Of a stretch of DNA of 64,000 nt, positions 7,863 to 61,760 are shown in pieces. Each line of letters starts with the position of its first letter. Position 1 is the first letter of the stretch. The translations under genes and the position numbers were made by a program. Below the pieces are notes generated by a model. The model did no database searches and was not told where the DNA came from. It saw only the letters and a program-made list of their open reading frames with translations. Source of the stretch: Shigella phage SSG23; sequence record PQ351811; one strand, written 5' to 3'.

Positions 7863-8237
7863 ATGAAAAATATGATTACACCGGAAGATGTAGCATTTAA
7901 AACCGCAAATAACGGAGACATTCTTATCTTTATTAACGGTAAACATGCTGGTATGGTTGAACCGGAAGGACGCTGGGGAGTCGCCGAACTTTATGATGTG
8001 GCTGGTGTAGATCCGAAAACTGCAATTGTTTTTCTGGCTGATAAAGATCAAATGCGTCGAAAAATTGCTGCGCTCTATAATGAAGCAGTATATTTCTACG
8101 AACCGTTTCATCGTATTAAAACGATCTCCCGCGTGACTCGAAAAGATGTTAACGCTTGTATTATCAAGATTGTAGAGAATCAGGATAAACTGACGAAAGA
8201 CCAGATCGTTGACTTACTGAAAGAGATTATTCTATGA
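7863..8237 (+). CDS. hypothetical protein
   Basis: 124-aa ORF, RBS GGAGA upstream. Confidence 0.45.
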   Translation: MKNMITPEDVAFKTANNGDILIFINGKHAGMVEPEGRWGVAELYDVAGVDPKTAIVFLADKDQMRRKIAALYNEAVYFYEPFHRIKTISRVTRKDVNACIIKIVENQDKLTKDQIVDLLKEIIL

Positions 8238-8557
8238 TTGGCTTTAAACAGTTTGTTGAAGAAAATAAACTCAAAGAAGATATGACCGCTGGCGATGCTG
8301 GCGGCAATCCTGAGAAGATCGCAGCAGGGGAAACGAGCGGATCTATTACCAATCGTGGACCTAGCGTAGTGGGTAAAGAAAAACGCAAGAAGGAGAAAGA
8401 CGGTGCTTAGTATCATCATGTTTATCGTTGGCTTGCTGTCCGCTATTATCGGTGTTGTTGTTTTCGGATTATCTGGACACAAAACAAAAACAGAAAAGTT
8501 ATCCGAGATCACAATGTATGTTGGTGTAGTTCTCATTCTGTTATCGGTGGCGCTTAA

Positions 8558-8761
8558 ATGATTACGATGAAATGTCTTAAAAGCACATATGCACTTTTTG
8601 AAGCCGGAAAAGAATATGAATTTACAGAACTTGATCCGGTAGGCCGTTTTCGTGTATTCTCTTACACATCGCCAGATGGTAGTGTCTACAAATTTGGCTT
8701 AGATGAGAACGGAGAGAATGAAAATGAAAGTGTTGGAACTTTCATGAAATTTGAGCTATAA
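8558..8761 (+). CDS. hypothetical protein
   Basis: 67-aa ORF directly upstream of primase gene. Confidence 0.4.
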   Translation: MITMKCLKSTYALFEAGKEYEFTELDPVGRFRVFSYTSPDGSVYKFGLDENGENENESVGTFMKFEL

Positions 8762-8770
8762 GAGGTTATT

Positions 8771-9799
8771 ATGATTTACTACGCAGATTATGAAATAGCG
8801 GAAAAAGCCATATACGGCGAACGAAATTTTAAACGGTTGCATACTAGCTCATTTACGCTGGTCTGTAGTTGTCCGATCTGCGGTGACTCAAAGAAAAATC
8901 ATACTCAAGCGCGATTCCGTATCTATACCTATAAGGATAGTTTGCGTTGTGGTTGTTTCAACTGTAACTACAATCAGCCGTTAGGTGAATTTCTCAAACA
9001 GTATAAGCCGGACCTATTCAGGGAATGGCTTATGGAACGACGGAAGGAACAAGGCGACCACAAGAACACCACGTTCAAGCCACTGAAAAAGGTAGAAAAG
9101 CCGGAGATTAAGAAAGTGCAAACATTGCCTTTCTGCGAGAGATTAGATACTCTTCCGGCTAATCATCCTATAATAAAGTATGTCAGTGATCGTTGCATTC
9201 CCAACGATAAATGGGATCTTCTGTATTTCACGAGAGAATGGCAAAAGGTAGCAAATCACATTAAAGCGGATACCTTCAAGAATCCGCAACCTGAACCGCG
9301 TTTAGTGATTCCTATCTTTAACCGTGAGAACAAGATAGAATCCATTCAGGGGCGAGCATTGAGAAAGGATTACGGAAAGACCAAATATATGACGATTAAA
9401 ACTCATGAGTTAGCGAGTAAGGTCTACGGTCTTGAACGTGCTGATCCGAGCAAACCAGTGTACTTCTTAGAGGGTCCGATAGATTCCCTGTTCATTGATA
9501 ATGGATGTGCTATCACTGGCGGTACTTTGGGATTGGATGAAATTCCTTTCCCTGATCAGCGAGTGTTTGTACTTGACGCCGAACCACGGTCAGCCGATAC
9601 AATGCACCGACTGGAAAAGTTTATCAATGCAGGGGAAAAGATTGTATTGTGGGATCGTTGCCCGTGGCATTCTAAAGACGTTAACGCCATGATTCAGGAC
9701 GAGGGCGCTACACGCGACCAGATCATGGAATATATCAAAGAGAACACCGTACAAGGTCTGATGGCTAAAATGCGGTTTATGAAATATTGTAAATTTTAA
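8771..9799 (+). CDS. 61: DNA primase gp61 (zinc ribbon + TOPRIM)
   Basis: 342 aa; zinc ribbon CSCPICGD...CGCFNC; TOPRIM-like EGPIDSLF...VLDAE; same length as T4 gp61. Confidence 0.85.
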   Translation: MIYYADYEIAEKAIYGERNFKRLHTSSFTLVCSCPICGDSKKNHTQARFRIYTYKDSLRCGCFNCNYNQPLGEFLKQYKPDLFREWLMERRKEQGDHKNTTFKPLKKVEKPEIKKVQTLPFCERLDTLPANHPIIKYVSDRCIPNDKWDLLYFTREWQKVANHIKADTFKNPQPEPRLVIPIFNRENKIESIQGRALRKDYGKTKYMTIKTHELASKVYGLERADPSKPVYFLEGPIDSLFIDNGCAITGGTLGLDEIPFPDQRVFVLDAEPRSADTMHRLEKFINAGEKIVLWDRCPWHSKDVNAMIQDEGATRDQIMEYIKENTVQGLMAKMRFMKYCKF

Positions 9800-9813
9800 T
9801 TAATGAGGTGAAT

Positions 9814-10332
9814 ATGTCAGAATTTAATTCTTGCGCTGGTCTGGTTAGCGACGAAACTATGTCTAAAGCTGGTATTGCGTATTCCGAGGCAATCACTAGC
9901 GGCAAAGATCCGCTGCAAGTAATGTTAGATATGCAAAAAGGCTTACAGGTCGCACTAGCTGATAAATTTGAGTGGGTGCCGCATCCTGATAAGCTGGAAA
10001 CTTGCGGGGAGATCCTTGATTGGATGAAGTTGTGGGATGACGCAATCGACGACGAGACACGAGAACTTTATGTTGCCCTGGGTGGCATGTCAAATGGCAA
10101 AGATGCAAGCGCAATTACTAAAGTGTGGAAGAAGAACCACGGCGAAGCACGAGCGCGTAAATTTGCTGATCTGTCAGATGACGATAAAATCGAAATTGCG
10201 ATGGAATTGATCGATATCTGGCATTTCGTGCTGATTAAAATGCTGGGCTTAGGTTTAACCGCTAAGGATATCTTCAAGCTGTACTACCTGAAAAATGCTG
10301 AAAATTTCGCCCGTCAAGAACGCGGCTACTAA
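9814..10332 (+). CDS. 56: dCTPase/dUTPase gp56 (MazG-like)
   Basis: DPLQVMLDMQ, HPDKLET, IFKLYYLKNAENFARQERGY match T4 gp56 almost residue-for-residue at the C-terminus. Confidence 0.85.
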   Translation: MSEFNSCAGLVSDETMSKAGIAYSEAITSGKDPLQVMLDMQKGLQVALADKFEWVPHPDKLETCGEILDWMKLWDDAIDDETRELYVALGGMSNGKDASAITKVWKKNHGEARARKFADLSDDDKIEIAMELIDIWHFVLIKMLGLGLTAKDIFKLYYLKNAENFARQERGY

Positions 10333-10368
10333 AAATTAGTTGACACTACTCTATAATGGTTTTATTAT

Positions 10369-10398
10369 GCCTCCCGTCGAAAGATTGGAGGCTTTTTA
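10369..10398 (+). terminator. rho-independent terminator after gene 56
   Basis: Hairpin GCCTCCC...GGAGGC followed by TTTTT. Confidence 0.6.
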
Positions 10399-10400
10399 TT

Positions 10401-10904
10401 ATGCAATTCACACCAGAAGAACTTAACATCATTGATGAAGTGATGAACTCTAAAGAAAATATCGATATGTCGATCCTTAATGGATTGATTGAAAAGACTG
10501 AACGGTTAGTGCATCACGAAGCCTTGTATCGCGGTGTGAGCAAAAGAGAAGGCCGTAAGCTGGATACCTTAATTGTGGGTGATTCTTTCGTTGTAGAGCG
10601 TCCTATGAGCTTTACGCCACTACAATCAACAGCAGAGGACTTTGCAACCGATGTTTATGCAACAGGAAAGATTATTGCAGTAAAACCTACCAAGCCTTGC
10701 ATGAATTATTACGAACATGCTATAGACCGAGTGGTGTCTAAAGAGTATGACAATCCGACTACTCGACTGTCTTTGTATGCTATGTTGGCTGATGAGCGCG
10801 AGTGCATATACAAGACAGGGACGACCATGATCCTTGATGAGATCGAGGAAGTTTACGCGTGCAATGGCGACCTGATAGAGATTTACAAATTTTCTTTAAT
10901 TTAA
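10401..10904 (+). CDS. hypothetical protein; possible mono-ADP-ribosyltransferase (ModA/ModB-like)
   Basis: 167 aa; candidate R-S-ExE triad (LYRGVS, S/T-rich LQST, ERECIY) with ART-like spacing; occupies the modA/modB slot between 56 and dda. Confidence 0.3.
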   Translation: MQFTPEELNIIDEVMNSKENIDMSILNGLIEKTERLVHHEALYRGVSKREGRKLDTLIVGDSFVVERPMSFTPLQSTAEDFATDVYATGKIIAVKPTKPCMNYYEHAIDRVVSKEYDNPTTRLSLYAMLADERECIYKTGTTMILDEIEEVYACNGDLIEIYKFSLI

Positions 10905-17713: not shown

Positions 17714-19822
17714 ATGAAAATGCATATTGATAATGAAGAAGTATTTGGCAGTGACCTGAGCGGTGCGGTTGATTTTTCACTGAAAGCAAGTAGCAAGGCT
17801 TTTATGGTGCTTTCTAAGAACACATATCAATATTGTGAGCGTGCTTGCGTCCGTGAGTATTCGTGCAATGCTACCGACACTCACAAAGAAGCCGGAACCT
17901 TAGATCGTCCGTTTGATATTCATTTGCCGACTGCAATCGAACCGTATTTCTCTGTACGTGATTATGGTACTGGTATTCCATCTAAGAAAGAATTAGAACA
18001 ACTGTTTACGGTTTACTTTGAATCAACCAAAGACCAGACTAATGACTATATCGGATCTTTTGGTTTGGGTGCGAAGTCTGCTTATAGCTACACCGACACC
18101 TTTACAATCGTGAACTATTACAATGGTCGCGCTTATGGCTTTACTGCATTCGTGCAAAACTCTATGCCGAAAATGGTGCAGATTTTCGACGAACCAACCT
18201 ATGAAGACAATGGTCTGAAAATCACTATTCCGGTGAAAGAGAAAGATATTCAGACATGGCATCGAGAAGCACAATTTGTACTGCGTCATTTTGGGGAACA
18301 TAAACCGAATATCAACGCAATCGAAATTAATTATTTCCCTAGCTTTGATAATTATTATGTGTGTAATGGACGTGATAACGATTCCTATGTGGTATATGCA
18401 ATCATGGGTAAGATCCAGTATCCGATCCCGTATGAATATGTTCGCGGAACATGGTTAGAAGCTGTAAACCGCCAGCACCAGACCATTTACATTAATTTTG
18501 AGTTGGGTGATCTGGACCTGATGCCATCGCGTGAAGAAGTTCACTTGTCAATTGAGACTAAAGCGAACATCGAAAAACGTATTGCAGAAATCAATGAAAT
18601 GATGTTGGAAAAGGTTAAAGAGAAGATCGCCAGCATTGAAACGGAGCGTAAACTCGCGCAATTTATGAGCGAGTATTCATCGACTCAACGCAATATTATT
18701 AGCAAGATGGGTAAGATCGGACAATGGGACGATCCGGTAGCAATCTATAACAAGTTTGTAAATGCTGGTAAAGATTCGCCTAATGACGTAGAAGGTCAAG
18801 TGTATACTCTGTATCGTACTCGACACACAATCAGCAAATTGCGCCCTGCTTTCGTTAGCAGTCAATACAACATTACGCACTTTGTATGGATTCATAAAGA
18901 AGATATTCTATGTGTAATTGATGATACGGATAAACCGAAACTGCGTGCACTGACTCTTAACGGCATGGTCCAGGAATACGGCATCAATAAAAAGGTACTG
19001 GTGTTCCGTCAGAGCAACGAAAAACACATGGAGACTTTCGAGTACATCAAACAGTATTATGATGAATCGGAAATGACCGTGATTAAGGTATCCGAGGCCG
19101 ATGATCTGCGTGCTAAAGCAGTTAAGCCGGAGAAGACCGAACGTGCACAGCGTGAAGCTACTCCTAAGCTGCCTAACGTGTATATCATGGAAAAGATTGG
19201 TGACAGTTGGCATAAAACCAGCCATCATATGAAAGCGGCAGAGATTCGCGAGTTATCAGGCTTGCACATGTTCCGCGTGGGTGATGCATTCGAAAGCCGT
19301 AGCCGTCAATCGATCTATAGTGAAGATACCTTACACACGGCGCTTGACTACTTCGGGGTAACAAAGTATATTATTACCAGAAACGAGACACAAAAATATC
19401 TCGTTGACGAACAACTGGAATGCGCGCTAGAATTTGTTCGCGGTAAGCTGGCTGGTCTGGCTAAGAAGGTTAAGACCAATCATCTGGGGTATGGCGAATA
19501 TCTGGGTGTGATCACTATGTTGTTTCATGACGATGAATTAGAACGCTGTATTCCAGAATTTATTGACAGACTCTATGGTCGTCATTATAATAAAGAGGTT
19601 TCCAAGTTGCTCCTTCGTACTCGTTGGATTATGGACGAAGAAACTAAGAAGATCTGCGATGAAAAATTCACGGCAGCAAACGAACGAATTAAAGCAGTTT
19701 GTGCGAAGTTTAAAGAGAATAGCCCGTTACTGTATGATATTGTAGATAACTGGTATCGTATTCTGCATAATGACAAACGCGCACAAGACTTTATGAAACT
19801 GGTTAAGAATGTTAAATTTTAA
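17714..19822 (+). CDS. rIIA: rIIA protein (membrane-associated, GHKL-type ATPase fold)
   Basis: 702 aa; VRDYGTGIP and IGSFGLGAKSAYSYTDTF match T4 rIIA Bergerat-fold motifs; followed by rIIB. Confidence 0.85.
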   Translation: MKMHIDNEEVFGSDLSGAVDFSLKASSKAFMVLSKNTYQYCERACVREYSCNATDTHKEAGTLDRPFDIHLPTAIEPYFSVRDYGTGIPSKKELEQLFTVYFESTKDQTNDYIGSFGLGAKSAYSYTDTFTIVNYYNGRAYGFTAFVQNSMPKMVQIFDEPTYEDNGLKITIPVKEKDIQTWHREAQFVLRHFGEHKPNINAIEINYFPSFDNYYVCNGRDNDSYVVYAIMGKIQYPIPYEYVRGTWLEAVNRQHQTIYINFELGDLDLMPSREEVHLSIETKANIEKRIAEINEMMLEKVKEKIASIETERKLAQFMSEYSSTQRNIISKMGKIGQWDDPVAIYNKFVNAGKDSPNDVEGQVYTLYRTRHTISKLRPAFVSSQYNITHFVWIHKEDILCVIDDTDKPKLRALTLNGMVQEYGINKKVLVFRQSNEKHMETFEYIKQYYDESEMTVIKVSEADDLRAKAVKPEKTERAQREATPKLPNVYIMEKIGDSWHKTSHHMKAAEIRELSGLHMFRVGDAFESRSRQSIYSEDTLHTALDYFGVTKYIITRNETQKYLVDEQLECALEFVRGKLAGLAKKVKTNHLGYGEYLGVITMLFHDDELERCIPEFIDRLYGRHYNKEVSKLLLRTRWIMDEETKKICDEKFTAANERIKAVCAKFKENSPLLYDIVDNWYRILHNDKRAQDFMKLVKNVKF

Positions 19823-19833
19823 GAGGTGATATT

Positions 19834-19965
19834 ATGACTAAACTGACCGCTATCCAGAAAGAAACTATTCGTAAACAATACGCTCGCGGCTTGACTAAAG
19901 GCGAACTGGCACGAATCTATAATGTATCAGACCGCACAATCCGCAAGGTTGTCGAAGCAAAATAA
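19834..19965 (+). CDS. 43-aa helix-turn-helix peptide resembling the rIIB N-terminal domain
   Basis: MTKLTAIQKETIRKQYARGLTKGELARIYNVSDRTIRKVVEAK; RBS GAGGTGA 6 nt upstream; below ORF-track size cutoff. Confidence 0.45.
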   Translation: MTKLTAIQKETIRKQYARGLTKGELARIYNVSDRTIRKVVEAK

Positions 19966-19977
19966 TTCTGGTATAAT
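19949..19977 (+). promoter_or_regulatory. promoter with extended -10 (TTGTCG-17-TGgTATAAT) upstream of rIIB
   Basis: Overlaps 3' end of the 43-aa HTH ORF. Confidence 0.5.
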
Positions 19978-20026
19978 GATGTGAATCGGGCGGCGATAGT
20001 CGCCCACTAATAGAGGAATGAATACT

Positions 20027-21019
20027 ATGACTAAAGCAAAAATCACCGTCTCTGACCGTAACGTTCAATGCCTGGACTCTGCGAAACAAATCAAACTGGC
20101 TAAACAGTGGGGCGAAGGTAAGTTTACTACCCGCGAAGCACTTGCGGCAGCATTTGGTGTATCTCGTCGCACTGCCTCCCGTGTATTACTGATTCAGAAA
20201 GACGCAGTAGCGGAAGGTCGCAAGGCACTGGAAAACCGTAAAGCACGCCGTAAAACCAGTAAAGGAAAAGGCGGTGAACGCGCAAAAAAGCCCGTGACTA
20301 CTTCCTCAAAAATCGTAGCAATAGCCTCATCTAAATTCATTACTATTACATGTGGTGACATTGTTTATACTGCTGACCCATCACATGTTAACTTTAATGA
20401 AGCACTGGAAGCGATTAAACAAAATGATTTCATCAAAGCTATTACGCTGATTGACATTAAGAAAGCGGTTGAAGTATATTATCACGGCGCTTTCCGTATC
20501 GAAAATGGCATTGTGTATTATCATAATATTGTTCTTGATAATAATCTGACTCGTCGAGTTGTTGAGTCGATTAAAGAGAATAAGCCATATACGCACTATC
20601 TGAACTTCTTTGAGAAGTGCAAGAAAAACCCTAGCCGTAAGGCGGTAGATCGTCTGTTTGACTTCTTAGAGCACAACGACATTGAGATCGGGGAAGATGG
20701 TTGTTTCTATGCATGGAAACGTGTTGATGTTGATTATAAAGATTTCTTTACGCATACGTTTGATAATAGCCCAGGGCGCACGGTTAAAATGAAGCGTAAA
20801 GACGTGGACCCAGATGATGACCGCACTTGCTCTAATGGCCTCCATGTTGCAGCGAAACACTACATTCCGCACTATGGCGGTGGACGAGGCCGAATCATTA
20901 AATGCAAAGTTGATCCGCGTCACGTTGTAAGTATTCCGAAAGATTATGCGAATGCCAAAATGCGCTGTCATCGTTACTATGTGGTTGAAGATGTAACCGA
21001 AGGTTTTAGCCATTACTAA
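20027..21019 (+). CDS. rIIB: rIIB protein
   Basis: C-terminal two thirds match T4 rIIB (NPSRKAVDRLFDFL, FYAWK, FDNSPGRTVKM, CSNGLHV, DYANAKMR, VVEDVTE); start may be 20018 or 20027. Confidence 0.85.
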   Translation: MTKAKITVSDRNVQCLDSAKQIKLAKQWGEGKFTTREALAAAFGVSRRTASRVLLIQKDAVAEGRKALENRKARRKTSKGKGGERAKKPVTTSSKIVAIASSKFITITCGDIVYTADPSHVNFNEALEAIKQNDFIKAITLIDIKKAVEVYYHGAFRIENGIVYYHNIVLDNNLTRRVVESIKENKPYTHYLNFFEKCKKNPSRKAVDRLFDFLEHNDIEIGEDGCFYAWKRVDVDYKDFFTHTFDNSPGRTVKMKRKDVDPDDDRTCSNGLHVAAKHYIPHYGGGRGRIIKCKVDPRHVVSIPKDYANAKMRCHRYYVVEDVTEGFSHY

Positions 21020-25643: not shown

Positions 25644-25672
25644 TTGACAGGGGATCGGTGATCCCCTATAAT
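25644..25672 (+). promoter_or_regulatory. PeSL-type promoter TTGACA-[GGGGATCggtGATCCCC]-TATAAT
   Basis: 17-bp palindromic spacer with two GATC sites forms the whole spacer between consensus -35 and -10. Confidence 0.6.
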
Positions 25673-49751: not shown

Positions 49752-49820
49752 TAGTGAGGTGAATTAATCCTTCTTCTGGATACCTGATAAATAATGGTAT
49801 ACAGAAAAGAGGATTTATTC

Positions 49821-50468
49821 ATGAACTTACAAAAACTACACGACGCAATCATAGAAAAAGCGAAGATAAGAGGAACCGTTGAAGGATATAAGGAAACACA
49901 TCATATTTTACCGCGATCTATGGGTGGCGGTGATGAAGTCGATAACCTGATTGATTTGACAGCCAAAGAACATTTTGTGATTCATCACCTGCTAGCAAAA
50001 ATTCATGGTGGACCTATGGCGCAAGCATTTGGTATGATGTGTTTGGCAAAAAATGCTAAGACCAATAAAAGAGATTATGTTGTTTCGTCTAGGGTATATG
50101 AACAAGCTAGGGTACTGATATCTGAACAAAGAAAGGGTAAGCCTATGAAAGAAGAAACGCGAAGAAAGATTAGCGAATCTTCGAAAGGTGTATTGAAATC
50201 AGAAGAGACAAAAGCTAAAATGCGTAAACCAAAAACAAAGGAGCACGCGTTAAACATTTCAAAAGCTAGAATGGGAAGTAAAAATCCTATGTTTGGGAAA
50301 CCATCGCCAACTAAAGGAATACCACATAGCGAGGAAATGAGAAAGCTGATTGCACAAAGGACAAAGGAAGCAACAATGGCAGATCCTTGTCCGCATTGCG
50401 GTAAAATTACCAATAAAGGCAATGCTCTACGATGGCACTTTGATAACTGCAAAATGAGGAATATGTGA
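49821..50468 (+). CDS. HNH homing endonuclease (MobE-like; HNH + NUMOD3 repeats + C-terminal zinc finger)
   Basis: ETHHILPRSMGGGDEVDNLIDLTAKEHFVIH; repeated basic K-rich motifs; CPHCGK; inserted between nrdA and nrdB like T4 mobE. Confidence 0.75.
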   Translation: MNLQKLHDAIIEKAKIRGTVEGYKETHHILPRSMGGGDEVDNLIDLTAKEHFVIHHLLAKIHGGPMAQAFGMMCLAKNAKTNKRDYVVSSRVYEQARVLISEQRKGKPMKEETRRKISESSKGVLKSEETKAKMRKPKTKEHALNISKARMGSKNPMFGKPSPTKGIPHSEEMRKLIAQRTKEATMADPCPHCGKITNKGNALRWHFDNCKMRNM

Positions 50469-53230: not shown

Positions 53231-53692
53231 ATGATTAATGAGCTAATAGAAAACTATGGATTCGTTAAATATTCATGTTTAGAGTGTAAAGATGGTGATG
53301 TGATTCTACCGCCTCAGAAGAACCGTTTAAATGTTCTTTACGCTATTGTGGTTGATGATGAACTGGTATATATTGGTCAGACTGTTAATCTAAGAAAGCG
53401 GATCAATTATTACCGGACTAGCATTAACAGACAGACACCAACGGCGGATACTCGCAAGAGTAAGAATATTCATAAGGCGCTAGAGGAAGGGAAGACAGTA
53501 ACATTCTATTACCGCCAGTGCTTTGAGTTGTACATCGAGAATCCAACGGGTAAGGATATTATAAGCACTGCCGATATCGAAGAACCTGTTTTGATCACCA
53601 AATTTAAACCAGAATGGAACACAAATTATGTCAACAAAAGAAAACAACAAAAAAGTTTTAGCATTGTTCAAAAATCTGATGACACTATGTGA
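53231..53692 (+). CDS. denA: endonuclease II (DenA; GIY-YIG family)
   Basis: YGFVKY..., NVLYAIVVDDELVYIGQTVNLRKRINYYRTSINR, ARQCF match T4 DenA; about 17 aa longer at C-terminus. Confidence 0.85.
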   Translation: MINELIENYGFVKYSCLECKDGDVILPPQKNRLNVLYAIVVDDELVYIGQTVNLRKRINYYRTSINRQTPTADTRKSKNIHKALEEGKTVTFYYRQCFELYIENPTGKDIISTADIEEPVLITKFKPEWNTNYVNKRKQQKSFSIVQKSDDTM

Positions 53693-55612: not shown

Positions 55613-56490
55613 TGCCGAAATGTGAAGTGATTTTAACCGTTGGTTGTTCTGGGTCCGGTAAAACTACATGGGCTATGGAAACATGTAAACGGTTTAGTAA
55701 TTATCGTAATGTGAATCGTGATGATCTTCGTCTTATGTTGTTTGGTGTTGACTCACCTTTGAAATACAAATATACTAAGGAAAAGGAAAAGCTGGTAGAG
55801 TCTATTCAGAGAATGATTGCTCGCGAGACTCTATCACGCGGATTGAGTATCATTATCTCTGATACCAACCTGAAAGAAAAACATCGTGTATTCTACAAAG
55901 AACTTGCAAAAGAATTTAACGCGGTGTATACTGAACAAGTGTTCAATGAACCGTTTGAGACACTAAAGAAACGTAATTTCTATCGCGGCGAGAAAGCAAT
56001 TCCGCTATCTCATTTGCGTAACCAATTTTATCTGATGCAGGAATATATGGGTCAAGAAGTATACAAACCGAATACCATGCTGCCAAAGGCAGTGATCTTT
56101 GATATTGATGGAACATTAGCGGATAAGGGCGGTCGTCATCCGTTTGACTGGACAAAGGTCAAAGAAGATAAACCGCGTCCGCAAGTGATCGAAATGCTTA
56201 AACTGTATCGTGATAATGGTTATCGTATCATTACATGCTCAGGGCGTGAGGATGTTTGCGAAGAAGATACGCTGCAATGGTTGCGTGAACAGGGTATTGA
56301 ACCTAGCGATCACTTCCAGCGTGAAACTAATGATCGACGTCCAGACCATGAAGTCAAGAAAGAAATTTTCTTCTCTGAAATTGCACCGCGTTATCATGTT
56401 GTTTTGGCGGTAGATGACCGTGATCAAGTGGTTGACATGTACCGCGCAATCGGTGTAGAATGTTTTCAGGTTAACTACGGAGACTTTTAA
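55612..56490 (+). CDS. pseT: polynucleotide 5'-kinase/3'-phosphatase
   Basis: 292 aa; Walker A GCSGSGKTTWA, IISDTNL, HAD DIDGTLA, CSGRE, VVLAVDDRDQVVDMYRAIGVECFQV...GDF match T4 Pnk. Confidence 0.9.
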   Translation: MPKCEVILTVGCSGSGKTTWAMETCKRFSNYRNVNRDDLRLMLFGVDSPLKYKYTKEKEKLVESIQRMIARETLSRGLSIIISDTNLKEKHRVFYKELAKEFNAVYTEQVFNEPFETLKKRNFYRGEKAIPLSHLRNQFYLMQEYMGQEVYKPNTMLPKAVIFDIDGTLADKGGRHPFDWTKVKEDKPRPQVIEMLKLYRDNGYRIITCSGREDVCEEDTLQWLREQGIEPSDHFQRETNDRRPDHEVKKEIFFSEIAPRYHVVLAVDDRDQVVDMYRAIGVECFQVNYGDF

Positions 56491-56693
56491 TGTTTACCGA
56501 TAAAATTAAGAAATTAGGCGAATCACTTGCTAAACGTGGTTTTAATGTTGAGATTGAACCAGCACCAATTAACCCGTTTAGCGATGAGCGTCGTAGTGTA
56601 TATGTCATTATGAGCAATGATCATGGTGTGAATACATTCAATGTAAAACAGTATAGCGACGGGTCAGTAGAATACTTTCGCGTATACGGTTAA
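56490..56693 (+). CDS. hypothetical protein
   Basis: 67-aa ORF. Confidence 0.35.
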   Translation: MFTDKIKKLGESLAKRGFNVEIEPAPINPFSDERRSVYVIMSNDHGVNTFNVKQYSDGSVEYFRVYG

Positions 56694-57221: not shown

Positions 57222-57528
57222 ACAAATTGATAATATCGTACTTCGTGAAGCACTCAAGAAAATGTTTTCGGTCGGTACTCACTCTTTGCAGTTTACTAAG
57301 AAAGATGGTACTGTCCGAGATATGATCGCCACGCGAGATCCGGCACTGATGCCATTTGAAACATACGAAAAGTGGTTAGTGCCTAATGTTGATAAACCGC
57401 GTAAAGAATCAGAAACATCTTTGCCAGTATATGAAATTGCAGTTGAAGGTTTTCGTAGCTTCGGGCTTGATAGTCTGATTCATGTAAACGGCTTAACGCC
57501 AGCGCAGATCATCGAAATTTATAAATAA
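57214..57528 (+). CDS. hypothetical protein
   Basis: 104-aa ORF overlapping cd stop. Confidence 0.4.
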   Translation: MTEQIDNIVLREALKKMFSVGTHSLQFTKKDGTVRDMIATRDPALMPFETYEKWLVPNVDKPRKESETSLPVYEIAVEGFRSFGLDSLIHVNGLTPAQIIEIYK

Positions 57529-57893: not shown

Positions 57894-57975
57894 TGATTTT
57901 AAACGGCGGGAATTATCCCGCCTATATTTTGGCTATATGATTTTGTAAGTTATTGATTATTAAGGAATTTTTATT

Positions 57976-58140
57976 ATGAAAACTATGAATGTAAACATCC
58001 ACGAAATCCATACCGAAGTATTCACCGAAGAAGACCAGTTTGGTGTATGGGTAAATCCTCACTCGATTACTATCGATATTCCTCATGACGATTACGATCC
58101 GTTCTCTATGATTAGCGAGATTAGTTTCAATGACTTCTGA
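57976..58140 (+). CDS. hypothetical 54-aa protein
   Basis: RBS-preceded ATG; below ORF-track cutoff. Confidence 0.3.
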   Translation: MKTMNVNIHEIHTEVFTEEDQFGVWVNPHSITIDIPHDDYDPFSMISEISFNDF

Positions 58141-58609
58141 AATTGATATCTATGCGGGTGGACCTTATCCATCTGGCGAGTTGAGTAATTTCAATAAAAG
58201 ACCATTCCGTCTATTTGGTTGCGATATTAACAGCACAGAAGGATTTTTACAGGGGCTAAGATTTAAGAACCCTCAGAGACAAAGAGAAATCTTTTTGATG
58301 CACGGTGGCAAAGCAAAAAGAACCGGAAGGACTGAAAAGATAGAGAATCACATGCTATATTTTCAGGGTCGCCCGATTCATCGAATGAGTGAGCATTATT
58401 ACAGACTGGTACATCTGGCATTTGTTACGATGGCACGGAATAACCCAGAATTTTGTAAAGCATTACTCGCTACCGGAAATAAGAAATTGCGTCATAGCAT
58501 AGGTGGAACTGATCCGTTAAAGACCATATTGACCGAATCGGAATTTTGTAGTATCCTCAATGATATTCGTGAACGTTTAACAAAACGAGGTGAAAATGTC
58601 AATTCTTAA
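58130..58609 (+). CDS. NADAR-like (YbiA/DUF1768 family) protein
   Basis: 159 aa; ELSNF, STEGFLQGLRF (cf. YbiA DFSNF...TSEHYFQAQKF), KALLATGNKKL fit NADAR pattern as recalled. Confidence 0.5.
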   Translation: MTSEIDIYAGGPYPSGELSNFNKRPFRLFGCDINSTEGFLQGLRFKNPQRQREIFLMHGGKAKRTGRTEKIENHMLYFQGRPIHRMSEHYYRLVHLAFVTMARNNPEFCKALLATGNKKLRHSIGGTDPLKTILTESEFCSILNDIRERLTKRGENVNS

Positions 58610-60092
58610 TATCATTAATCAGCTTGCAGCGACCGACAAAACATCGCTGAAAGAAAAGATCCTGAAAGAATCTGCAAGCAATGAAACGCTGAAAGAATGC
58701 TTTTATCTGGCATATTGCAAACAGGTTACGTTTGGCGTAAAGAAATACGATAAACCGTCGCGTTATTCATCTGTGTTGTCTTTATCCGGTGCATTACAGG
58801 TCTTTAAAAATAAACTTGCCACGCGTCAAGTAACTGGTAATGCCGCATTACAGCTAGTTACCGATACTCTGACTTGCTTGTCAGAAGATGATGCTAAAGT
58901 TGCAATGATGGTCCTGAATCGTGATCTGGAATGCGGTTGTTCCGCTACCACAGCAAACAAGGTATGGAAGAAGCTGATTCCTCAGCAGCCGTGCCATCTT
59001 GCATCGTCATGTTCTGATAAGACTATTGCCAATATCAAATATCCGGCGTATGCACAACTTAAAAGCGATGGCGCTCGTGGTATGGCTGATATTGACGGGG
59101 AAACATTAGCAATCTATACCCGTTCAGGTAATACCTATCAGGGGCTGGATGATTTGTTTGCTGTTTTAGAGCGTCTACGAGGCCGTGGAGTTGTTTTAGA
59201 TGGTGAGTTGGTATATATGCCTACCCTTTCGCAAACACCAGCGCAGAACTTCGTTGATAGCGTTTATGATGGTACTCTGTCATGGATATTTGAAGAAGAG
59301 GAAATGCCATTAACGCCAGTAGCGGAAGCAGTGAAAGAATCAGTTGTTGCAGATCGTCAGACCGGAAATGGTATCCTTAACAAATCACTGAAAGGAACTA
59401 TTCCGAAAGAAGAAGCCCAATGTATTGTATACACCGTCTGGGATGTTATCGACCGTGATGTGTATTACGGAAACGAGAAAGCAACGAAGCAGTATAAAGA
59501 TCGATTTGAGGAACTAAAACAGATTGTTGAAGAACTTAACGATCCTCGTGTTCAGATAATCGAAAATACTGTAGTTAACAATATCGATGAGGCTCGCGAA
59601 GTATATCATCGCTATGTAAACATGGGATTAGAAGGTATTATCCTTAAAAATTTACATGGTGTATTTGAAGATCGTCGCAGTAAAGATCAGGTTAAATTTA
59701 AAGAAGTGATTGACTTCGACGCGGAAATTGTTGATGTATATCCGCATAGTAAAGATCCTAACAAGGTAGGCGGTTTTACTGTCCGTAGTGCGTGCGGACG
59801 AATGACGACTAACACCGGATCGGGATTGACCGACACCACAACCGAAAAAGATGATGATGGTATTGAACGTGTAATTCCGTTCGATCGTCGAAATGAACTC
59901 GACCGAGAAATGTTATGGGCTGACCGTCATAACCTGATTGGAAAAGTCATTGAGATGACATGCAACGGGTATATCCGCAGCAAATCACGTAAAGAAGATG
60001 AACCGGAGTTCTCTTTATTTCTCCCGATCATCAAACGTATTCGCTACGACAAGACCACTGCAAATACAGTAAAAGAGGTATTCGATGTGTGA
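58596..60092 (+). CDS. 30: ATP-dependent DNA ligase gp30
   Basis: NRDLECG, ANKVW, YPAYAQLKSDGARG (ligase KxDG), VLDGELVY, GIANKSLKGTI, EGIILKN, KFKEV match T4 gp30. Confidence 0.9.
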   Translation: MSILNIINQLAATDKTSLKEKILKESASNETLKECFYLAYCKQVTFGVKKYDKPSRYSSVLSLSGALQVFKNKLATRQVTGNAALQLVTDTLTCLSEDDAKVAMMVLNRDLECGCSATTANKVWKKLIPQQPCHLASSCSDKTIANIKYPAYAQLKSDGARGMADIDGETLAIYTRSGNTYQGLDDLFAVLERLRGRGVVLDGELVYMPTLSQTPAQNFVDSVYDGTLSWIFEEEEMPLTPVAEAVKESVVADRQTGNGILNKSLKGTIPKEEAQCIVYTVWDVIDRDVYYGNEKATKQYKDRFEELKQIVEELNDPRVQIIENTVVNNIDEAREVYHRYVNMGLEGIILKNLHGVFEDRRSKDQVKFKEVIDFDAEIVDVYPHSKDPNKVGGFTVRSACGRMTTNTGSGLTDTTTEKDDDGIERVIPFDRRNELDREMLWADRHNLIGKVIEMTCNGYIRSKSRKEDEPEFSLFLPIIKRIRYDKTTANTVKEVFDV

Positions 60093-60561
60093 TAATGAAG
60101 GGGCGAAAGCCCCTAAACCTAAAAAATTGTCAAAGAAAGAGCAACGCCAGATCCTGAAAATGAAATACGGTGGACGTTGTGCCTATTGTGGCGAGGAACT
60201 AGGGGATCGCTGGCACGCAGACCACATCAAACCAGTATTGCGACGCTCAAAAGTAGTCTATGATGAAAGTGGACGAATTGCCCGTAATGATGATGGATCG
60301 TGGAAGTATAAGGTTGTAGGAATGCATAAACCGGAGCACGATATACTTGATAACATGAATCCGGCTTGTGTGCAATGCAATCTTTACAAAAGCTGTATGG
60401 GCTTAGAATACTGGCGTAAGTGTATACGCGAGAACTTCCAGAAGTACATTCAACGTAACATGGGATTACGTGCGGCTAAACGCTTTGGCTTACTTTCAAT
60501 CCACGATCAGCCAGTAGAATTTTATTTCGAAAAGTACGAGCGCGAGCATCAAGAAAAATAA
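60085..60561 (+). CDS. HNH endonuclease (free-standing)
   Basis: 158 aa; CAYCGEEL...HADHIKPV...NMNPACVQCNLYK classical HNH motif. Confidence 0.7.
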   Translation: MCDNEGAKAPKPKKLSKKEQRQILKMKYGGRCAYCGEELGDRWHADHIKPVLRRSKVVYDESGRIARNDDGSWKYKVVGMHKPEHDILDNMNPACVQCNLYKSCMGLEYWRKCIRENFQKYIQRNMGLRAAKRFGLLSIHDQPVEFYFEKYEREHQEK

Positions 60562-60574
60562 TTCAAAAAAGTTG

Positions 60575-60603
60575 TTGACAGGGGATCGCCGATCCCCTAT
60601 ACT
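60575..60603 (+). promoter_or_regulatory. PeSL-type promoter TTGACA-[GGGGATCgccGATCCCC]-TATACT
   Basis: Palindromic 17-bp spacer with two GATC sites. Confidence 0.6.
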
Positions 60604-61731: not shown

Positions 61732-61760
61732 TTGACAGGGGATCACAGATCCCCTATAAT
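61732..61760 (+). promoter_or_regulatory. PeSL-type promoter TTGACA-[GGGGATCacaGATCCCC]-TATAAT
   Basis: Palindromic spacer 61738-61754 with two GATC sites. Confidence 0.6.

Follow-up and report, generated by a model that had tools for sequence, protein, structure and literature searches.

The HNH endonuclease gene overlapping the end of the DNA ligase gene in Krischvirus phages is probably a fixed, vertically inherited accessory gene

In a 64,000-nucleotide (nt) stretch of Shigella phage DNA (SSG23, PQ351811; all of it referred to here as the window), a compact HNH endonuclease gene directly follows the DNA ligase gene and stands at the edge of a hyperplastic region of small open reading frames (ORFs), which opens with a PeSL (an early promoter with an embedded stem-loop). 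Is this gene a homing element, a DNA-processing partner of the ligase, or a source of the cassette shuffling seen in the neighbouring region? All three had been put forward in the original prediction, made from the sequence. The 4-kb stretch around the HNH ORF is 100% identical to Shigella phage SFHK24 (PQ351812.1; Straboviridae, Krischvirus, RB49 group), in which window position 1 is position 76162, and 94–97% identical to 57 further Krischvirus records. Comparison of these genomes and of more distant relatives suggests that the gene is probably a fixed, vertically inherited and selectively maintained accessory HNH nuclease gene, domesticated after an ancestral acquisition.

The gene (60085–60561, + strand) encodes 158 amino acids (aa), appears in the ORF list at the predicted place, is annotated ‘HNH endonuclease’ in PQ351812.1 and is the orthologue of RB49ORF212c and phi1 ORF212. 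Directly upstream and co-oriented is gene 30, encoding the ATP-dependent DNA ligase (58596–60092, +; Pfam DNA_ligase_A_M, 2.4e-22; PHROG 114, 2.1e-142; also annotated as such). The overlap of the HNH start with the ligase stop, reported in the original prediction, amounts to 8 nt (ATGTGTGA, 60085–60092), running from the HNH ATG at 60085 to the ligase TGA at 60090–60092, and a Shine-Dalgarno sequence (AAGAGG, 60073–60078) lies 6 nt 5′ of the ATG. The whole junction (60073–60092, +) has the form of a translational coupling site and is identically arranged in six other Krischvirus loci (ligase end at 2293 and HNH start at 2286 in locus coordinates).

That the product is an HNH nuclease is borne out by alignment, in which the catalytic residues are present rather than absent: eight key residues (C32, C35, D46, H47, N90, C95, C98 and N99) are invariant among 26 diverse homologs. 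The protein matches Pfam HNH (PF01844; 26.5 bits against a gathering cut-off of 21.4, E = 7e-6) and PHROG 2118 ‘HNH endonuclease’ (E = 5.7e-55), and has the ββα-metal fold of the HNH superfamily. Together with the substitution ratios given below, these profile matches put the ORF well clear of anything expected by chance. Its catalytic core (residues 30–103; 60172–60393, +) comprises a zinc knuckle formed by the invariant pairs C32xxC35 and C95xxC98, the D46-H47 general base, a 35-aa β-hairpin insertion, N90 and the terminal metal-binding N99, with every catalytic and zinc-ligand residue intact; the last position is Asn (an H-N-N variant), as in Cas9. The strings quoted in the prediction are found in the translation at residues 32–39 (CAYCGEEL), 44–51 (HADHIKPV) and 95–99 (CVQCN). 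The core is followed by a family-specific C-terminal helical extension (..RNMGLRAAKRFGL..PVEFYFEKYE..; 60394–60558, +), in which G135, L136, F146, F148 and E149 are invariant in the homolog alignment, and a structural model gives one compact domain with flanking helices, placed at 107–124, 126–133 and 147–156. Pfam detects HNH only, with no NUMOD, AP2, IENR1 or helix-turn-helix DNA-binding module; no NCBIfam family scores above its cut-off (TIGR02646 reaches 16 bits against a cut-off of 52), and PADLOC returned weak, motif-level matches to PtuB (E = 4e-4 to 1e-2, motif region only) and to Cas9. Assignment as the HNH effector of a defence system (PtuB, retron TIGR02646, Cap5) was rejected, as the profile matches are at motif level only and there is no adjoining PtuA ATPase, retron reverse transcriptase or SAVED domain.

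Presence/absence mapping, the check proposed with the prediction, argues against an active homing element. The HNH gene is found in 58 phage records (95.7–100% nt identity), in each of which it overlaps the ligase 3′ end, and follows ligase in 58/58 Krischvirus genome records, with no empty ligase/PeSL site among those in GenBank. The same 58 records match a query made of the ligase 3′ half plus HNH, while the ligase 5′ part matches 59, the extra one being a 1,491-bp RB49 fragment that ends inside ligase. In seven Krischvirus genomes (SFHK24, RB49, Phi1, JK32, Brandy, FL15 and ELT4), Nei-Gojobori (NG86) ratios of nonsynonymous to synonymous substitution rates (dN/dS) are 0.034 for HNH, 0.038 for ligase and 0.046 for gp30.3, with similar dS in all three (~0.10–0.12). 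Judged from these substitutions, purifying selection acts on HNH and ligase with equal strength, and the two evolve equally slowly. The density of variable sites (single nucleotide polymorphisms, SNPs) is flat over the ligase/HNH junction, with no co-conversion step or tract signal.

A comparator is available in the same genomes. Between nrdA and nrdB lies a MobE-like HNH+NUMOD3 homing endonuclease gene (49794–50468, +; Pfam NUMOD3, 3.7e-9; PHROG 655, 5.2e-56; HNH motif in the translation), which makes the ligase-adjacent gene the second HNH gene of the window, as originally stated. The nrdA/nrdB gene is present in 7/58 Krischvirus records (SFHK24, PTE-Eco09, phiS, two JSE records, FL15 and AV108), and the junction is empty in most of the others. 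This sporadic occurrence is the pattern expected of a mobile endonuclease in these genomes, and the ligase-adjacent HNH gene differs from it. The nrdA/nrdB site is a classic insertion hot spot; in some genomes it holds a DNA (cytosine) methyltransferase gene (Delraymugoa, Aragogtheria, KMB43) or a different HNH gene (G5211, G2494).

Ligase-HNH synteny reaches beyond Krischvirus. A word-indexed protein search returned a 70% identical HNH protein (P0003) from a 1.3-kb contig (L014), in which the C-terminal half of a ligase (70% identical) lies directly upstream with a TAATG overlap, and a terminator and promoter lie downstream. An exhaustive representative search gave 1,288 50%-identity clusters at E ≤ 1e-3 and 359 at E ≤ 1e-10. 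HNH proteins 60–61% identical (P0121) are encoded on three ~168-kb T4-like contigs (L040, L041 and L042: ENA ERZ27275837 k141_13924, 167,953 bp; ERZ27275846; and Logan SRR9943761) in the order rnlA-spanin-pseT-cd-31.x-31-30.3-ligase-HNH; identity of this lineage to the window is 51% for ligase, 49% for pseT, 56% for cd, 58% for gp31, 51% for gp30.3 and 60% for HNH. A further HNH protein, 58–59% identical (P0122), comes from a 7.8-kb contig (L043) with the order 31.x-31-30.3-ligase-HNH and a 60% identical ligase. The ligase/HNH junction is a 23-nt overlap in L040 and a 16-nt gap in L043. The proteins of these uncultured T4-like phages (L040–L042, L043, L014) are 49–70% identical to those of Krischvirus, and on this basis the contigs appear to represent RB49-like genera outside the searched GenBank phage collection. 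Over the four lineages, as far as sequence identity tells, HNH is conserved as well as or better than the adjoining core genes.

Outside Krischvirus, the closest ligases in GenBank (Slopekvirus, Pseudotevenvirus and Tequatrovirus) are ≤45% identical, and no homolog of the ligase-adjacent HNH gene was found in the GenBank phages that carry them. Most simply, the RB49-like clade gained the gene once, at its base, and has passed it on vertically since. G+C content of the gene (0.434, compared with 0.407 for the window; 0.428 at third codon positions) is only slightly above that of its neighbours and so close to the window value that its composition appears ameliorated, with no sign of recent import. 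A scan of IMG/VR added only two Krischvirus contigs and distant siphophage-type homologs, and a scan of metagenome contigs returned only a Krischvirus ligase-HNH fragment (L025; MAVA01000210.1, 1,029 bp). HNH is interrupted there by several frameshifts, and the terminal 160 bp derive from ~400 bp downstream in inverted orientation; the fragment has the appearance of a sequencing or assembly error rather than of a pseudogene. In a Pseudotevenvirus, Klebsiella phage iPHaGe-KPN-12i, a gene for a homing-type HNH_3+AP2 endonuclease overlaps the start of the ligase gene (L007, 2469–3020). It was rejected as a relative, being of an unrelated class and upstream of ligase, and its presence implies that an HNH gene of another class has separately entered the ligase locus in a T4-like genus other than Krischvirus.

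More distant members of the family are widely scattered. Outside the RB49-like clade the best matches (≤45% identical, 120–140 aa) are in siphophages, podophages and prophages, including eiAU, Sasha, Bas77 and Bcep176 and phages of Acinetobacter, Klebsiella, Vibrio, Caulobacter, Polaribacter and Streptococcus, and 2,695 plasmid records, mostly enterobacterial conjugative (2,445 conjugative), carry a homolog. These genes lie in replication/early modules, in prophage early regions, directly before terminase in two cases (Bas77 and BT-1011) or in the trbC-traN interval of the F-type transfer operon, and are nearly always co-directional with their neighbours, with stop/start overlap. In the IncF plasmids pYU15_94 (L047, 3986–4405) and Kp36 unnamed2 (L048, 3986–4408), homologs 38–40% identical lie between trbC and traN and overlap the traN start. 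No neighbouring gene is constant across 12 phage, prophage or metagenomic contexts and four plasmid contexts: a methyltransferase gene lies within 3 kb in ~4/16, genes of the phosphoadenosine-phosphosulfate (PAPS)-reductase family in three and terminase in two. Of the three contexts with PAPS-reductase-family genes, which lie 1–4 kb upstream of the homolog, one is a Vibrio phage and two are plasmids, including an IncY plasmid (L035, L038 and L039). Homologs from F-type plasmids (trbC-traN), eiAU, Sasha, Bcep176 (gp50) and HCM1.27c belong to the same family (38–45% identity over ~85% of the length) and share the invariant residues and the C-terminal motif, but have other hosts and neighbours, no adjoining ligase, a usually shorter central insertion and no 13-residue N-terminal extension. 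Scatter of this kind, with homologs wedged between conserved genes in unrelated mobile elements, is expected of a family with selfish mobility, past or present, and makes a mobile origin plausible on these sequence comparisons; in Krischvirus, present-day mobility has no support.

Taken as a maintained accessory nuclease, the gene would descend from the stock of small, free-standing HNH genes found in siphophages, prophages and plasmids, taken up in the ancestry of the RB49-like T4-type phages. It would share a transcript with ligase in the early or middle phase of infection, with translation of the two coupled. Ten small phage and prophage HNH enzymes are site- and strand-specific nickases with 3–7 bp specificity, dependent on Mn/Mg (PMC3592412; also PMC3765158 and PMC5304195). 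By analogy with such characterised enzymes, the protein is predicted to nick or cut duplex DNA with low (3–7 bp) or structure-dependent specificity, with Mg2+/Mn2+ presumably held by D46/N99, H47 acting as the general base that would activate water, and DNA contacts probably provided by the conserved β-hairpin insertion (residues ~53–80) and the C-terminal helices. The benefit to the phage would then lie in DNA processing, through nicking of host, rival or replicating DNA with the ligase as the natural sealing activity, and not in ongoing self-propagation.

Several points weigh against this view. Nuclease activity, substrate and timing in RB49-like phages are predictions from sequence and analogy; owing to the 35-aa insertion, Pfam HNH aligns with no more than the first half of the motif (profile positions 1–24 of 47); and ligase lies beside the homolog in 0/12 non-T4 phage contexts and 0/4 plasmid contexts. 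Purifying selection would also be expected for a selfish endonuclease still spreading somewhere, and adjacency to ligase may have no functional meaning and simply record where a single ancestral insertion took place, at the border of a conserved block. The originally proposed role as a ‘DNA-processing partner’ of the ligase is possible, conserved adjacency being what points to it. It is quite doubtful that the two go as far as forming a programmed nick-and-seal pair, with HNH a domesticated, clade-defining core gene coupled to ligase. Nicking might in that case start recombination-dependent replication, or, in a T4-type phage that lacks hydroxymethylcytosine, might mark and attack host or rival DNA that is unmethylated, and such a pair, if real, would explain conservation as good as or better than that of ligase over ~50% protein divergence.

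Other explanations attribute the same features to different activities. An active free-standing homing endonuclease, in the style of T4 Seg and Mob, would cut the ligase-proximal region of co-infecting relatives lacking the HNH gene and be copied in, with flanking markers, by recombinational repair. Position between a conserved gene and a variable region is typical of free-standing homing genes, the wider family is patchy between conserved genes of unrelated mobile elements (trbC/traN, siphophage replication modules), the ligase locus is invadable, as the unrelated HNH_3+AP2 gene just upstream of ligase in iPHaGe-KPN-12i illustrates, and Nolan et al. 2006 (PMC1524935) placed RB49ORF212c, as a Pfam HNH endonuclease (9.2e-7), among ‘putative mobile DNA elements’. 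Homing is nevertheless unlikely here, given 58 occupied sites and no empty one, divergence congruent with that of ligase down to ~50–60% identity, ligase-like purifying selection, uniform SNP density over the junction and a 158-aa protein consisting of catalytic core and helices only, whereas the true homing endonuclease of the same genomes is as sporadic as expected. Quite unlikely, too, is an anti-host or anti-competitor nuclease from which self DNA is protected by a phage methyltransferase, a solitary restriction-like module that would suit a T4-type phage with unmodified cytosine. Clade-wide conservation of HNH does suggest a real benefit to the phage, and among the homologs one (P0026) is directly preceded by an N6_N4 methyltransferase gene, Sasha has a C5 methylase gene two genes upstream, and eiAU and Bcep176 have methyltransferase genes nearby; these few contexts, however, are a minority of those compared, methyltransferase genes are common in phage early regions anyway, and the HNH protein has no detectable domain for reading modification. 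SFHK24 has three annotated methyltransferases, the nearest of which is ~5 kb from HNH and outside the ligase-HNH unit. They lie at 19645–20484, 55768–56580 and 141951–142667 of PQ351812.1 (the last ~1.8 kb past the window end; one among baseplate genes), and may bear on self-protection if HNH is methylation-sensitive.

The original prediction also had the HNH nuclease making the breaks that drive PeSL cassette shuffling. A perfect PeSL (60575–60603, +; promoter scan 11/12) begins 14 nt past the HNH stop and reads TTGACA-GGGGATCGCCGATCCCC-TATACT, with a GGGGATCG/CGATCCCC stem-loop embedded between the -35 (TTGACA) and -10 (TATACT); the concept was described previously (PMC2839356, PMC4122927). 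With this element the ligase-HNH unit closes and the hyperplastic small-ORF region opens. A search for the strict PeSL pattern gave three matches (60575–60603, 61732–61760 and 25644), where shuffled sequences gave an expectation of 0. The predicted ‘PeSL-rich block’ downstream of HNH does open with a PeSL, but with only two strict PeSLs in 60.5–64 kb ‘rich’ was generous. Krischvirus homology runs through HNH and usually through the PeSL, then breaks: after the PeSL, SFHK24, JK32 and Brandy share one ORF and Phi1 and ELT4 share another. In RB49 (ORF211c; L008, 2767–3111) and FL15 (L012), the 114-aa hydrophobic ORF211, an integron-ORF homolog (Arbiol et al. 2010, PMC2839356), takes the place of the PeSL and of the final four codons of HNH, which puts a recombination breakpoint inside the HNH 3′ end. 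HNH is thus the last conserved gene before the variable block, and in L014 and L040 it is likewise the last gene before a terminator/promoter and small-ORF array. A boundary lying exactly at the HNH 3′ end or the PeSL, where RB49/FL15 and Phi1/ELT4 differ, is what a break-making nuclease might leave, but selection keeping ligase-HNH intact would produce it equally well. The strict PeSL at 25644 stands in a small-ORF block with no HNH or other nuclease gene nearby, and homologous recombination from PeSL to PeSL, together with mini-circles, already accounts for shuffling without a dedicated nuclease (Arbiol et al. 2010, PMC2839356; Comeau et al. 2014), leaving this role very unlikely.

It is extremely improbable that the protein is a packaging-associated HNH of the HK97 gp74 type or stands in for T4 gp49, the endonuclease VII debranching enzyme. 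Its size is near that of gp49 and it gives weak PHROG and Pfam matches to ‘endonuclease VII’ families, but the genome has its own gp49 (Endonuclease_7 plus dimerisation domain), unrelated to it beyond the first CxxC, and the ligase-adjacent HNH protein lacks the Pfam Endonuclease_7 and EndoVII dimerisation domains of T4 endonuclease VII; substitution for gp49 was rejected. Two homologs do lie just upstream of terminase genes (Bas77 and BT-1011). Packaging was rejected on position and packaging mode: the terminase genes are at 8142–10459 of the record and HNH at 136246–136722, ~126 kb apart, and T4-type phages package by headful.

The HNH ORF stands at the end of the series pseT, cd, 31.x, 31, a 54-aa ORF, 30.3 and 30 (DNA ligase), and an array of small ORFs of unknown function follows. 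Gene 30.3 (Phage_30_3/NADAR-like; 58130–58609, +; Pfam PF08010, 1.2e-38) is the first larger gene of the co-directional block. After gene 31, a stem-loop/terminator followed by TATATT (57905–57930, +; from the terminator scan and the sequence) is the probable upstream boundary of an ORF57976-30.3-30-HNH unit; the stem-loop is GC-rich, with TATATT right after it, and resembles a PeSL-like terminator/promoter without a good -35. A scan of 57.93–60.57 kb gave no sigma-70-like promoter >9/12, no intrinsic terminator and no T4 late promoter, and an independent transcription unit for the HNH ORF was rejected because none of these lies directly upstream of it. Since they are absent all the way from the 57905–57930 stem-loop to the PeSL, the simplest reading has the HNH ORF closing a 30.3-30-HNH unit as its last cistron. 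A T4 late promoter (TATAAATA) is found at 57520–57527, 43 nt 5′ of gene 31. A separate small nuclease gene of the same early region, encoding a GIY-YIG-domain endonuclease (53231–53689, +; PHROG 1111, 2.1e-52), overlaps the rnlA start.

The HNH gene was already known, from the 2006 listing and from RefSeq and many GenBank annotations as ‘HNH endonuclease’. The RefSeq Krischvirus entries (RB49, Phi1, JSE, GEC-3S, ECD7 and others), RB49ORF212c and phi1 ORF212 are the same gene, being 97.5–100% identical in aa sequence and sharing both the place after gene 30 and the overlap with the ligase stop. Residue 62 is S in SFHK24 and N in most other orthologues, with nothing material otherwise, while those of RB49 and FL15 differ in the four C-terminal residues and have the extra ORF211 directly downstream. 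Small zinc-knuckle HNH nickases (Gme HNH, PDB 4H9D; GVE2 HNH, 5H0O; N.phiGamma) are usually found beside cos/terminase and act in packaging, whereas the ligase-adjacent HNH gene is in the replication/early region of a headful-packaging T4-type phage. Its product is ≤~30% identical to them over the core and differs in the 35-aa β-hairpin insertion between the H and N elements and in the C-terminal FYFEK helix bundle; zinc ligands Cys38, 41, 73 and 76 of Gme HNH align with C32xxC35 and C95xxC98 (PMC3765158). Resemblance to the HNH domains of Cas9 and IscB is in fold only, as these are RNA-guided modules of large proteins and most Cas9 HNH domains lack the double-CxxC zinc site. Free-standing homing endonucleases of T4-type phages (MobE, Seg, and AP2-HNH enzymes such as RB49 ORF040) are alike in HNH-family motif (as in MobE) and in intergenic placement beside a conserved gene, but their DNA-binding modules (NUMOD, AP2 or others) and their sporadic occurrence in close relatives have no counterpart in the ligase-adjacent HNH gene.

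What the present comparison adds to this is that the ‘mobile element’ label misfits the distribution of the gene, and that ligase-HNH synteny extends to uncultured RB49-like lineages. This is mostly a clarification, which opens no long-standing question and would not surprise a specialist. In Krischvirus phages, several of which are therapy candidates, the ligase-adjacent HNH can reasonably be proposed as a domesticated nuclease that plays a real part, and a compact natural nickase might be obtained from it.

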